Below are positions 5,492 through 13,520 of a DNA stretch of 64,000 nucleotides, piece by piece; position 1 is the stretch's first letter, and each line of letters opens with the position of its first letter. The stretch is from Escherichia phage ECP2303. The translations under genes were made by a program, and so were the position numbers. The notes under the pieces are model-generated. The model saw nothing but the letters and a program-made list of their open reading frames with translations, was not told the DNA's origin and ran no database searches. The stretch lies in the sequence record PP261279.1; one strand, written 5' to 3'.

Positions 5492-5762
5492 TTGTCATTT
5501 TACATTCTTGAAATTTTAACACAAGACGGTGATTGTGTCTAGTGTCTAAAAAGATTTTTTCAACCATCAGGCACACGGTATAACCGTCCATCTTGTTGAC
5601 AACAAAATCTCCAGGGTAAGGGAGAGTGTCCCCTGGGCTGGGAAAGCATAACCCGCTCAGAAAGGCATCATCGGTGGTGGACTTAATGGATTTCCACACA
5701 CTATCTGCCTGAACATTCTCACCAACATAATATACACTACCACATGACTTCATCATAGTCAA
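5484..5762 (-). CDS. Hypothetical protein (92 aa)
   Basis: Co-oriented ORF overlapping both neighbours by a few codons; the true start is uncertain. Confidence 0.4.
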   Translation of the reverse strand: MTMMKSCGSVYYVGENVQADSVWKSIKSTTDDAFLSGLCFPSPGDTLPYPGDFVVNKMDGYTVCLMVEKIFLDTRHNHRLVLKFQECKMTIA

Positions 5763-6657
5763 TCTCCGCGTAAATTAAACTGGAATCAGTATACTTCTTT
5801 AATGGGTAAATATCCTGTCCATAGATGCAATCATTAAACACCTCATCTACCCAAAGGCTACGCTTATATCCCATCATTTCTAAAACACTCATCTCTTCTT
5901 CGGTAAACTTATCACCACTCTTGCAAGATGTCAATACCTCATTTTGAACTCTTGCTACCTCGAATCGGTTATTGGCAATATCGCTATTGGCGATCAAATA
6001 CTCACCTAGAGGGTGTGCGGCATTAAAGATGCACAGTGGACGGCTGACGTAATAGTCTCCGGGTGTATAAAAATTGTTGAGGTCTTTCACTAGAACATTC
6101 TTATCAGTCACTTCATTTATAACATCATGCATATCGCACATCTTTATATGTTTGAGGATTCCATCTCCCATCACAAAATAAAAACTTGCTGAGACACTTT
6201 CGGCATAGATCTTACTAGATCCGTTGTAGTTGTATTTTACTCGGATGCTAACGGGGGTTTTTCCTGTCGCGTTAGCCATCATCCAAAGAAATGGCAGCTC
6301 ATACTTCTCCTCTGAGGAAACAAAAGGTGAGGTAGCCAGAGATCGAAAACCTCCAGAGAAGTTGAAAGTTACAGAACCGCTCCGGCGGTATGATACCGCG
6401 TATTCTACTTTTATATCGACGTACCCATTGGAATAGGTGTGTCCTTCATTATCTAAATATGTCCACTTATCAGACCCAGATACCAATCTACGCTCAATAA
6501 CCTTCATCACTACAGGAATTAGTGGGTTGGTACAAACCGCTTTTGAAGTAGCTTTATCATCTAAAGCCTCGTAAATTGCAGAAAGGATGTCCCCAGCTGA
6601 AAGATTGGTTGTTATGTCCTGTTTCCACCGCGTACTAAAACTGTTAAGATTTGCCAT
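5737..6657 (-). CDS. Hypothetical protein (306 aa); first gene of the leftward early operon
   Basis: ATG at 6657 is preceded by AGGAG on the minus strand and lies just downstream of the TTGACT-N17-TATAGT promoter. Confidence 0.65.
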   Translation of the reverse strand: MANLNSFSTRWKQDITTNLSAGDILSAIYEALDDKATSKAVCTNPLIPVVMKVIERRLVSGSDKWTYLDNEGHTYSNGYVDIKVEYAVSYRRSGSVTFNFSGGFRSLATSPFVSSEEKYELPFLWMMANATGKTPVSIRVKYNYNGSSKIYAESVSASFYFVMGDGILKHIKMCDMHDVINEVTDKNVLVKDLNNFYTPGDYYVSRPLCIFNAAHPLGEYLIANSDIANNRFEVARVQNEVLTSCKSGDKFTEEEMSVLEMMGYKRSLWVDEVFNDCIYGQDIYPLKKYTDSSLIYAEIDYDEVMW

Positions 6658-6697
6658 AAGTAAGTGCTCCTATGTTAGTTTTCTTTCGAATGGGTGC

Positions 6698-6726
6698 ACT
6701 ATATTGTGGAGTTAGAGTAAAGTCAA
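6698..6726 (-). promoter_or_regulatory. Sigma70-like promoter for the leftward early operon
   Basis: Minus strand reads TTGACT (6726-6721), a 17-nt spacer, then TATAGT (6703-6698). An AGGAG-ATG follows about 40 nt downstream. Confidence 0.6.
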
Positions 6727-6733
6727 CACGTTT

Positions 6734-7777
6734 TTGATGTTGACATCTGTTGAGACAATTGATACGATTTCTTCACTTACAGAGCACGAGAGACGACGCA
6801 TGAATCTTGAAAAATATTATACACCAGAAGAGTTAGAGCGCTTGCTCAAAAAATATAGACGCAAACAGAATAACGCACGGAAACGAGATATAGAGTTCGA
6901 CCTGTCATGGGAAGAATACCTCCTATTTGGTAAAAAACTTTTAGGAGATGGAGTATGCGACTATACCCTTATACCTTTTGACATGCACACAGATGAAAAC
7001 GGGCTGGGGAATCCTTTCTACCCATCTTTGGAGCGTATAGATGATGAAGGTCCTTACGCAATTGACAATTGTTGTGTGGTAGGGTTGAGGTGCAATGCTC
7101 TGAAAGACTGTCTGGTAGATAAAAAGACTGCAATCCTGATTAAAGACAAAACTGATCGAAAAATTGTCCAGCAGATGATGCTCCACCTGAGTGAAGAGCG
7201 TATGGAGAAGTTGAAAGGTGATTATACTTTTGAAGATTTCATCTTGCAATACGGGACAGAAGAAGATAAACTAGCACTATTTGACGAAGAGGAAGAAGAT
7301 ATGTCACCGATGCAGGATTTTAAAAATTTCATGGCTGATCGTGCAGCCAACAAACACATTTCAGACATCGTAAACGAGACTGTGACAGAAGAAATTGAAG
7401 AACAGACATCTGAAGAGGAAAAAGAGCCTCAGGTGGTTGAAGAGGAGATTGCAGAAGAGGTTCCTGCACTGCCTGATGATGTTGAGATTGCTAAGGCTTA
7501 CACTTTCTATTGTCAAACGTTCTACGATGCAGGTATGAAAGTTGACCTGTCGTTCAGCCAATTTAAGAGTTCGTATATTCGCAAATGCTGTGCTTTAACT
7601 GGTGAACGTCTCGGAGCTGGACTTAAACCACTGTTGGTGACCGACTGGAATAAAGGTTTCACTAAAGGAAACTTTATGGTAGTATCTCCAATTATGGAGA
7701 AAGCTATGACAGATCTTATGAAGACCACCCGCATGACAATGACCGAGTTGGCAGGTATTTTCAAACACGTTAAATAA
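6734..7777 (+). CDS. Hypothetical protein with acidic Glu-rich region; probable true start at 6800
   Basis: The ORF-track start at 6734 sits inside the promoter -35 box. The first ATG downstream of the predicted transcription start is at 6800 (MNLEKYYTPEEL...). A Glu-rich low-complexity stretch is present. Confidence 0.65.
   Translation: MMLTSVETIDTISSLTEHERRRMNLEKYYTPEELERLLKKYRRKQNNARKRDIEFDLSWEEYLLFGKKLLGDGVCDYTLIPFDMHTDENGLGNPFYPSLERIDDEGPYAIDNCCVVGLRCNALKDCLVDKKTAILIKDKTDRKIVQQMMLHLSEERMEKLKGDYTFEDFILQYGTEEDKLALFDEEEEDMSPMQDFKNFMADRAANKHISDIVNETVTEEIEEQTSEEEKEPQVVEEEIAEEVPALPDDVEIAKAYTFYCQTFYDAGMKVDLSFSQFKSSYIRKCCALTGERLGAGLKPLLVTDWNKGFTKGNFMVVSPIMEKAMTDLMKTTRMTMTELAGIFKHVK
6739..6767 (+). 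promoter_or_regulatory. Sigma70-like promoter for the rightward early operon
   Basis: TTGACA (6739-6744), a 17-nt spacer, then TACGAT (6762-6767). Its -35 box and that of the divergent promoter lie in the two arms of a 7-bp inverted repeat GTCAACA(6722-6728)/TGTTGAC(6738-6744). Confidence 0.55.
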
Positions 7778-7783
7778 TGACAG

Positions 7784-7798
7784 GGGCCATTGGCCCCT
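7784..7798 (+). terminator. Weak hairpin or attenuator between the acidic-protein gene and the VWA gene
   Basis: GGGGCCATTGGCCCC hairpin followed by a short interrupted T-tract. The probable VWA start (ATG 7811, GGAG 7 nt upstream) follows immediately. Confidence 0.3.
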
Positions 7799-9271
7799 TC
7801 TGGAGTTTTAATGGATAGCAGAAGTTCAGAAATCATTGCCTCACAGAAAGATGATGCCCTGAGAATGTTGCAGGCTGCACGTATGTATCTCCTTGAAAAG
7901 CTGCCGTTTTATGGCACACTGCTGTCAGGATTGCAGTTCGTAGAAAACCACACATGGTGCTCCACCATGGCAACCGACCATAAACGCATCTATTACAGCC
8001 CTGAGTTCATTATGGGATTGGCTGATGAACGCAAGGTTATTCTTAAGGCTTCTCTAACTGACGAACAGTTTGAGATGGCTGAGGTTTTCTATTCCCTCAA
8101 ATCTGTGAAAGAGGTGGCTTTTCTTCTGTCACACGAGGTGGGGCATATTATCTGTGATCACCTGGTCCGTGGTAAAAGCTTCGAGCCGGAACTGTTTAAT
8201 ATTGCTTGTGATCATGTTATCAACACAGGTCTTGTGGTTGACTTTAGCAAGCCTCCCTGTGTTTTCTTCCCGAAGGGGAAAAGCACTACGTTCGTGAAAG
8301 GTAAGCCTTTTGGTTTCTTAGCCAGCTGCTACTGCGACATGAGGTTTCATGGATGGATTGCTGAGAACGTCTATGCGGTTCTTGATAAGCAAAGAGATCA
8401 GAATAACGGTAAAAGTAAGAGCGGTAAAGGTGAGAACTCTCAAGGGGATAAGCGACAAACCGATGATCACATGAGTGGGAACGGTGGCACCAGCGATGAT
8501 CTTGGAAAGGCTATGGGGTATGATCAGCCACAACCTGTAATCAGCCAATCTGATAAAGATCAGGCCATGCAAGACTCTGGTGACATGCTGGAAGCAGCAA
8601 TGCAAGCTTCCGGAGGTCGTTGCCCCGAGGCGGTGCGTGAGTTTGTCAAGAACAGAGGTAAGCCTGTAATCAACTATATAGACATCATTAAGCAACGCAT
8701 GTTGTCTAAACGAAAGGCCGAACTGACCTACAGAAAACCTGGTCGCCGATCTGGGTCTTTGACCAGCACAATGCGAAAAGTTGGGGCTATAAACAAGAAC
8801 CAGCACGTTATTGTTCCTGGTCGTAATCCGGAAAACACCATAGATATTGTGGTAGCTTTAGACGTTTCTGGCTCGATATCTCAAAGAACTTTAAAGAAAA
8901 TGTTCAATGAAATCACCGGATTGTGCAATCTGTATAAAGAGTTTAAGGTTACAATGTTCTGTTGGTCAACTGAAGTCGGAGAGGTTAAAGTATATACTCG
9001 CGGCAACATAGACGAAATGATCAACTATGAGGTCCACTCAACATGGGGCACAACAGCTGCTTGCGTGTTCGAGTATCTGGATGCCAACATACCAAATGCA
9101 AAAGATGTCATCGTCCTGACCGACCTATACTTTGAGCATAACTTTGAACAAAAGGCTGTTGACAACAAGTGGAAAAAGTACGATACTTTATGGGTTCTCA
9201 CCGAAGGGTATAATAAAAATTATATCCCTAGCTTTGGTAAAACTGTGGAATTAATCGAGTACGCTAAGTAA
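7790..9271 (+). CDS. Metallopeptidase-motif + von Willebrand factor A domain protein (DUF2201-like architecture); probable true start at 7811
   Basis: N-terminal half contains HExxH (SHEVGHIICDH). C-terminal half contains the VWA MIDAS motif DxSxS (VALDVSGSIS). Proteins of this architecture are typically partners of MoxR ATPases. Confidence 0.8.
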   Translation: MAPSGVLMDSRSSEIIASQKDDALRMLQAARMYLLEKLPFYGTLLSGLQFVENHTWCSTMATDHKRIYYSPEFIMGLADERKVILKASLTDEQFEMAEVFYSLKSVKEVAFLLSHEVGHIICDHLVRGKSFEPELFNIACDHVINTGLVVDFSKPPCVFFPKGKSTTFVKGKPFGFLASCYCDMRFHGWIAENVYAVLDKQRDQNNGKSKSGKGENSQGDKRQTDDHMSGNGGTSDDLGKAMGYDQPQPVISQSDKDQAMQDSGDMLEAAMQASGGRCPEAVREFVKNRGKPVINYIDIIKQRMLSKRKAELTYRKPGRRSGSLTSTMRKVGAINKNQHVIVPGRNPENTIDIVVALDVSGSISQRTLKKMFNEITGLCNLYKEFKVTMFCWSTEVGEVKVYTRGNIDEMINYEVHSTWGTTAACVFEYLDANIPNAKDVIVLTDLYFEHNFEQKAVDNKWKKYDTLWVLTEGYNKNYIPSFGKTVELIEYAK

Positions 9272-13485: not shown

Positions 13486-13520
13486 AAAAAGAAAGGGGCC
13501 GTTTGGCCCCTTTTTATTTA
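13486..13520. terminator. Bidirectional intrinsic terminator between the convergent early (+) and late (-) operons
   Basis: GGGGCCGTTTGGCCCC hairpin (13495-13510) flanked by an A-tract upstream and a T-tract downstream, so it is functional in both orientations. Confidence 0.7.

Follow-up and report, generated by a model that had tools for sequence, protein, structure and literature searches.

In phage lambda, the divergent sigma70 promoters PR and PRM start transcription at points roughly 80–85 bp apart, and the DNA around their −35 boxes is symmetric. Three 17-bp OR operators serve CI and Cro at this site, and the operators recur at PL. A different kind of symmetry was described by Warman et al. 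(2021). Their bidirectional promoters, as summarised in PMC10268837, share a near-palindromic −10 element and have start sites 7–25 bp apart, with a mode of 18 bp. At back-to-back promoters such as ilvY/ilvC, reviewed in PMC4469952, divergent transcription can stimulate the partner promoter via negative supercoils. The nearest described pair is that of phage rV5, for which Kropinski et al. (2013, Virol J 10:76) proposed that the genome is divided into four transcription units, two of them being genes 10-1-238-164 and genes 11-26, and published P010 and P011 as bidirectional promoters. In Table S4 of that paper, P010 is given as CAAAAACGTG-TTGACT-N17-TATAGT and P011 as TTGACA-N17-TACGAT, with the TG marked. 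The promoter calls in the rV5 paper are predictions, and neither the inverted repeat nor the conservation described below is commented on there.

The DNA analysed here, referred to as the window, is a stretch of 64,000 nucleotides from a Vequintavirus (rV5-like) E. coli myophage. The region of interest is all but indistinguishable from that of Escherichia phage ECP2309, and it shares 90–99% identity with 116 other Vequintavirus (rV5-like) records. Reading of the sequence and a promoter scan located two sites in the sole intergenic gap between divergent genes, which spans 142 bp. On the minus strand, the leftward promoter comprises a −35 hexamer TTGACT (6726..6721), a 17-bp spacer (6704–6720) and a −10 hexamer TATAGT (6703..6698), matching the consensus at 10 of 12 positions. 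On the plus strand, the rightward promoter comprises TTGACA (6740–6745), a 17-bp spacer and TACGAT (6763–6768), also with 10 of 12 matches. The latter additionally has an extended −10 element (6760–6768), in which TG (6760–6761) and an A precede the hexamer. Promoter geometry predicts that transcription starts at an A located 7 nt past each −10 hexamer, at 6691 for the leftward and 6775 for the rightward promoter. These predicted starts, separated by about 84 bp, would yield leaders of 34 and 25 nt, respectively. Both sites thus have the hexamers, a spacer of 17 ± 1 bp, the orientation to the adjoining gene and the plausible leader of a sigma70 promoter. In the classification of Beck and Warren, they form a back-to-back divergent pair: the core elements do not overlap, they lie on opposite strands and transcription diverges.

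The two −35 hexamers flank a 13-bp centre (6727–6739) that holds a run of five T residues (6731–6735). The first-pass annotation had placed the promoters about 12 bp apart; the close separation stands, with the measured gap between the −35 hexamers being 13 bp. It had also reported a perfect 7-bp inverted repeat, which a repeat finder reproduced. The left arm, GTCAACA (6722–6728), consists of 5 bp of the leftward −35 box plus CA, and the right arm, TGTTGAC (6738–6744), consists of TG plus 5 bp of the rightward −35 box. The arms are 100% complementary and are separated by 9 nt.

Compared with the systems outlined above, the locus resembles lambda PR/PRM in that a divergent sigma70 pair occupies a phage control region, with similar spacing of the starts and symmetry at the −35 boxes. 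It differs in that neither an operator recurring in the window, nor conserved symmetry past the −35 boxes, nor a recognisable repressor among the adjacent proteins was found. With the promoters of Warman et al., the locus shares DNA symmetry that arises as a by-product of elements read on both strands. Unlike those promoters, it has separate −10 elements (6698–6703 and 6763–6768), starts about 84 bp apart and symmetry in the −35 rather than the −10 region, and it is not a bidirectional promoter in their sense. The back-to-back arrangement is that of ilvY/ilvC; there, however, a LysR-type regulator is also involved, and coupling of the phage pair is only putative. The rV5 pair P010/P011 is orthologous. 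Its hexamers and centre are the same as those of the window, and the differences, a few substitutions in the leftward spacer, are of no substance.

Public records agree with this assignment. The rV5 entry (GenBank DQ832317) carries the annotation 'Sigma70-type promoter; P11' at the exact position of the rightward promoter. The Gotham record has PhagePromoter predictions at exactly 6698–6726 (minus strand) and 6740–6768 (plus strand) in window coordinates, and the PVP-SE1 record has a promoter annotated at the same place. The core finding is therefore an already published prediction for the type phage rV5. A search of the accessible literature found no transcription-start mapping, reporter or expression data for any Vequintavirus; a 2026 PNAS RNA-seq study concerns a T5-like phage. 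Overall, it is highly probable that the site is a pair of back-to-back, host-sigma70-type promoters (P010/P011 of rV5) at a divergent junction and that the inverted repeat is a geometric by-product of the pair.

The genes on either side fit this arrangement of promoters. The first gene of the leftward unit (5737–6657, minus strand) is the homolog of rV5 gene 10, a 'putative alpha-1,3-fucosyltransferase' (PHROG 12338), whose ATG at 6657 is preceded by an AGGAG Shine-Dalgarno sequence at 6667–6671. The first gene of the rightward unit (6800–7777, plus strand) is the homolog of gene 11 (PHROG 3118). Its N-terminal domain resembles the T4 Srd and 'sigma70 decoy' families, a likeness also noted by Kropinski et al. 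for rV5.

To assign the start of gene 11, we considered ATG 6800, ATG 6737 and TTG 6734. Downstream of ATG 6800, substitutions relative to other variants fall predominantly at third codon positions (first/second/third positions: Aya, 7/4/32; EmilHeitz, 7/0/20; L006, 6/2/25). In the 63 nt upstream of 6800, the corresponding counts of 4/6/3, 7/7/3 and 5/6/1 show no coding pattern. Moreover, Seunavirus, Mydovirus, Henunavirus and TH18 have an in-frame stop 3–27 nt 5' of the equivalent ATG, and their gene 11 homologs align at the N-terminus with MNLEKYY... The codon-position pattern and the in-frame stops of these distant genera uphold the first-pass proposal that the gene starts at ATG 6800 and not at TTG 6734. 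ATG 6737 is likewise disfavoured: half of the Vequintavirus variants have AGG or AGA in its place. In addition, either of the upstream starts, 6734 or 6737, would fall within the promoter's own −35 region. ATG 6800 is thus a well-supported predicted start. Annotated starts vary: ECP2309 uses 6737, the records of Gotham, Mangalyan and the BASEL phages use 6800, and that of rV5 uses a TTG lying 14 codons further into the gene.

We next consider conservation of the promoters. The gap was aligned across 14 sequences: 10 Vequintavirus variants, which are 84–100% identical here, and four IMG/VR contigs, whose gene 11 protein is only about 65% identical. None of the 14 sequences has a substitution in either −35 hexamer (AGTCAA, on the plus strand, for the leftward promoter) or in the TG of the extended −10, and the −10 hexamers are nearly invariant. 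The leftward TATAGT is the same in nine of the 10 Vequintavirus variants, with TACAGT in Aya, and reads TATTCT in the L007 group (about 65% identity). The rightward −10 hexamer is TACGAT or TAAGAT across Vequintavirus. Among the 10 Vequintavirus variants, 92% of the hexamer columns are invariant, against 58% for the rest of the gap; across all 14 sequences, the values are 75% and 28%. Both spacers are fixed at 17 bp in all 14 sequences, yet only 12% of their columns are invariant. For the leftward spacer, constant in length and variable in sequence, this proportion is 29% among the 10 Vequintavirus variants and 12% in the full set. Judged from the alignment, selective retention of the hexamers alongside drifting spacers is the classic footprint of functional promoters. 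According to this sequence evidence, both sites are almost certainly functional, and we infer that the pair fires early. The first-pass reading of two near-consensus sigma70 promoters heading divergent units is borne out by the coordinates, by this footprint and by the published rV5 promoters.

The layout extends beyond the genus. A rightward TTGACA promoter lies upstream of the gene 11 homolog in every Vequintavirinae locus fetched, including those of Seunavirus (PVP-SE1, GAP31 and 4MG), Mydovirus, Henunavirus, the TH18 group and Ro1. A leftward, diverging candidate is present wherever the gene 11 homolog stands at a divergent junction, the candidates in Seunavirus and Mydovirus being weak (8 of 12 matches). 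In SSBI34, a comparable pair occupies a separate divergent junction, located about 600 bp upstream of the gene 11 homolog with one intervening gene. The distance between the −35 hexamers varies: 3 bp in the TH18 group, Seunavirus, Mydovirus, Ro1 and at rV5 genes 81/82; 4 bp in Henunavirus and L040; 13 bp in Vequintavirus and the L007 group; 14 bp in two metagenomic relatives; and 23 bp in SSBI34. The junction of rV5 genes 81/82, TTTCAA-GTG-TTGACA, has the same back-to-back −35 layout, with symmetry limited to the hexamers.

These distances bear on the possibility that the two promoters are coupled, through supercoiling generated by divergent transcription or through steric effects between polymerases, and that the −35 gap is held to one helical phase (3, 13 and 23 bp). 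The gaps observed across the subfamily, 3, 4, 13 and 23 bp, are suggestive in this respect, and the centres of Vequintavirus and SSBI34 look like insertions of 10 and 20 bp past a shared 'CAC'. For ilvY/ilvC, moreover, coupling of back-to-back promoters by supercoiling is established (reviewed in PMC4469952). Nevertheless, the series reflects only about two independent length changes, for which the rough probability of arising by chance is 0.01–0.09. Gaps of 4 and 14 bp occur as well, and in several genera the leftward promoter call is weak (8 of 12). Few junctions can be compared, since homologous genes elsewhere do not stand at divergent junctions: gene 11 is not at one in Plateaulakevirus, FBKp34 or ChuuTotoro, and Seunavirus, Mydovirus, Phapecoctavirus and a Demerecviridae phage have a non-divergent RNA-ligase junction. 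The IMG/VR loci added to the gap survey were only members of lineages already seen. We therefore regard coupling of this phase-locked kind as unlikely. The narrower proposition that the −35 gap is quantised by the helical turn across Vequintavirinae (3–4, 13–14 and 23 bp) appears slightly less likely still. If it were true, the polymerases, or a factor bound to the symmetric core, would sit on a fixed face of the DNA, and the pair would be one coupled early switch rather than two independent promoters.

The first-pass annotation had suggested that the inverted repeat could be the binding site of a dimeric regulator. In this scenario, GTCAACA-N9-TGTTGAC is an operator to which a dimer encoded by the phage or the host binds, turning the two units off (or on) at once by occupying both −35 boxes. 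The perfect 7-bp repeat does overlap both −35 boxes, as operators overlap the back-to-back −35 boxes of lambda PR/PRM, and a 6-bp form, GTCAAY/RTTGAC, occurs in 13 of the 14 aligned sequences. However, 5 of the 7 bp are automatic because diverging TTGAC boxes are reverse complements of each other. The remaining 2 bp come from a TG that commonly flanks the −35 boxes of this phage on their 5' side. In rV5 Table S4, TG precedes the −35 box in 8 of 26 promoters and G alone in 12 of 26. Because TG is so common at this position, two promoters from the rV5 set form a repeat of at least 7 bp with a probability of 0.11–0.15, that is, 11–15% of the time, and one of at least 6 bp in 33% of cases. The heptamer TGTTGAC is itself enriched in the window (27 vs 11.8 ± 3.5). 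Given the two promoters, the repeat is not beyond chance.

Nor is the symmetry maintained among the relatives. The full 7-bp repeat is found in only 5 of the 14 sequences, pair 7 being lost in the other nine. Within the left arm, only GTCAA is invariant, and bases 6 and 7 vary. In the right arm, nine of the 14 sequences have G or A in place of T 6738, and Aya has A in place of G 6739. The repeat is reduced to 6 bp in phiWec191, L005, EmilHeitz and the L007 group, EmilHeitz having non-complementary changes on both sides of pair 7. In L006, pair 6 is broken and only the 5 automatic bp are kept. In Aya, by contrast, pair 6 has changed on both sides and is still complementary (GTCAAT...ATTGAC), a double change that could hint at selection on symmetry. 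We rejected covariation as support for an operator: L006 has one of Aya's two changes, and the 7th positions of EmilHeitz do not pair.

The geometry and genomic context of the repeat also argue against an operator. Across relatives, the −35 gap takes values of 3, 4, 13, 14 and 23 bp, so that half-site geometry is lost where the promoters are kept. The centres of the two arms are 16 bp apart, or about 1.5 helical turns. They would accordingly lie on opposite faces of the DNA, an arrangement expected to be unfavourable for a simple symmetric dimer. The 64-kb window holds no second copy of the palindrome: a search for GTCAAC-N11-GTTGAC with at most two mismatches gave matches at the level of chance, three against 2.75 expected. 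Pfam searches with gp10, gp11, gp12 and another 20 proteins encoded by the two operons revealed no DNA-binding domain, HTH and repressor domains included, which is weak evidence inasmuch as these approximately 23 proteins are mostly orphans. Nor does the rV5 gene table list a repressor, a regulator or an HTH protein. Overall, the repeat shows neither conserved symmetry beyond the elements it overlaps, nor preserved half-site spacing, nor recurrence in the 64-kb window. These data make an operator improbable, and the suggestion of a dimeric-regulator site gives way to an explanation by two −35 boxes and the phage's usual TG, the extra pairs not being conserved.

It is also very improbable that the two sites resemble promoters by accident and initiate no transcription. 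The window is A+T-rich, and many 10-of-12 matches do occur within its genes. Even so, sites with at least 10 of 12 matches are enriched about twofold in the window, with 38 against 16.4 ± 4.2 in first-order Markov simulations, and this counts in favour of real promoters. About 0.02 such sites are expected per strand in a 142-bp gap, and simple arithmetic from the simulation puts the chance of two correctly oriented sites in a single divergent gap on the order of 3 × 10^-4. The pair is thus beyond chance. In addition, the sites suit the genes on either side in position, orientation and leader length, conservation is selective for the hexamers as the spacers drift, and the layout is conserved between genera.

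The least probable reading, that the repeat acts as a nucleic-acid hairpin, either a terminator of read-through transcripts or a cruciform, can be set aside: the terminator scan does list the repeat on the minus strand, and both strands are predicted to fold into a stem of 7 bp, but this stem has little stability (−5.4 and −5.2 kcal/mol; z of about −1.7 to −1.8; 12 of 200 shuffles fold as well), is not kept in relatives, had no Rfam match, contains just three G-C pairs and a loop of 9 nt, is followed by a poor T tail (TTTACTCT) in place of the stable G+C-rich stem and U tract of an intrinsic terminator, and lies upstream of both predicted starts and hence in neither transcript.

We return to the preferred reading, a pair of sigma70 promoters whose −35 boxes generate the repeat. 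In this model, unmodified E. coli RNA polymerase holoenzyme would bind each promoter independently, with sigma region 4 contacting the −35 hexamer and region 2 the −10 hexamer. The rightward promoter has, in addition, the TG of its extended −10. The leftward promoter may be helped by the centre of the site. The T5 run at 6731–6735 is kept in all relatives, its flanking bases being variable, and on the leftward strand it reads as A5 and occupies roughly positions −44 to −40 of P010. A-rich stretches of this type are common in rV5 promoters: AAAA occurs within 10 nt 5' of the −35 box in 12 of 26 rV5 promoters. For the proximal subsite of the UP element, Estrem et al. (1999) are reported to have given the consensus AAAAAARNR, at about −46 to −38 on the non-template strand. 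Compared by hand with this consensus, TCAAAAACG matches at 7 of 9 positions. By analogy with UP elements in general, the A5 tract is probably a UP-element-like contact for the alpha-CTD at the leftward promoter.

Transcription would then start at about 6691 leftward, giving the 34-nt leader with its AGGAG Shine-Dalgarno sequence, and at about 6775 rightward, giving the 25-nt leader. The leftward unit would comprise genes 10 to 1 and onward, and the rightward unit genes 11-26. The latter ends at a bidirectional terminator near 13,492–13,513, which was identified by the scan and corresponds to t026/t027 of rV5. The 7-bp repeat would need no function of its own in this scheme, the TTGAC boxes supplying 5 bp and the shared 5' TG supplying 2 bp. 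At this distance of about 84 bp between the starts, the two polymerases would overlap in their upstream contacts, and some competition or supercoiling coupling between the promoters is therefore plausible.

The feature is an ordinary, already published promoter pair, and it has little importance beyond annotation. Within that scope, several points follow. Any two diverging −35 boxes make an inverted repeat, and symmetry alone is consequently no evidence of an operator. The analysis also fixes the predicted start of gene 11, for which public records carry three different starts and four product names. Finally, in rV5-like phages, which are under development for biocontrol and therapy, the pair marks the likely point at which host RNA polymerase begins transcription of two of the four transcription units.

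The heptamer TGTTGAC, which forms the right arm of the 7-bp inverted repeat at 6738-6744, was over-represented in the window as a whole, with 27 copies against 11.8 ± 3.5 expected and none of 100 shuffles reaching that count. The majority of these copies are intragenic. At the centre of the promoter pair, the T5 tract at 6731-6735 is replaced by T6 in two metagenomic relatives, L005 (at ~2430 of that locus) and L008 (IMG/VR metagenome 3300045988), and the −35 boxes of these relatives are therefore separated by 14 bp. The additional nucleotide represents either a homopolymer assembly error or a genuine tolerance of one more base pair.

Public records of gene 11, the first gene of the rightward unit, use three different start codons, corresponding to 6737, 6800 and 6842 of the window, and carry four product names: anti-sigma factor, anti-termination protein, HNH endonuclease and decoy protein. 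The gene 11 protein had no match in Pfam. In PHROGs, it matched a family over its full length, labelled HNH endonuclease, and its N-terminal domain was described as Srd/sigma70-decoy/endonuclease VII-like. In phage V18, an A-run early in the gene (equivalent to ~6846-6852) is shorter by 1 nt, due to which the V18 record places the start much further downstream. Either the reading frame is shifted in V18 or the missing nucleotide is a sequencing error.

A 1-nt homopolymer change also occurs at the 3' end of gene 10, the first gene of the leftward unit, at 5758-5765, where the window has GTCAATCTCC and the near-identical phage ECP2309 has GTCAAATCTCC. It is the sole difference between the two sequences over 5700-7900. 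Because of this change, the end of gene 10 is shifted, yielding a predicted product of 306 aa, whereas relatives and the PHROG 12338 profile have 299 aa. The C-terminus may be genuinely frameshifted, or the change may have arisen as a sequencing error. The rightward unit ends at a strong hairpin at 13492-13513 (AAAGGGGCCAAACGGCCCCTTT), a bidirectional terminator whose counterpart in rV5 is t026/t027.

Among the related records, 16 of the MG0656xx series are named 'Campylobacter phage', with C. jejuni entered as the host. Their sequences share 90-99% identity with the E. coli rV5-like phages studied here, and the host label looks doubtful.

The type phage rV5 has a second divergent junction just beyond the window, between genes 81 and 82 (66,700-66,770 in rV5; 400-470 of locus L023), at which bidirectional promoters were reported not to be found (Kropinski et al. 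2013, Virol J 10:76). This junction contains P081 (TTGAAA-N17-TATACT) and, facing gene 82, an unannotated promoter-like site, TTGACA-N17-(TGg)CAGGAT. The two lie back-to-back, separated by a 3-bp gap.

Finally, the segment at 6676-6697 (plus strand, GTTTTCTTTCGAATGGGTGCAC), comprising the discriminator and the initial ~15 nt of the predicted leftward transcript, shows no change in 9-10 of the 10 Vequintavirus variants, whereas both promoter spacers drift. This segment may serve as a conserved element in the leftward leader.
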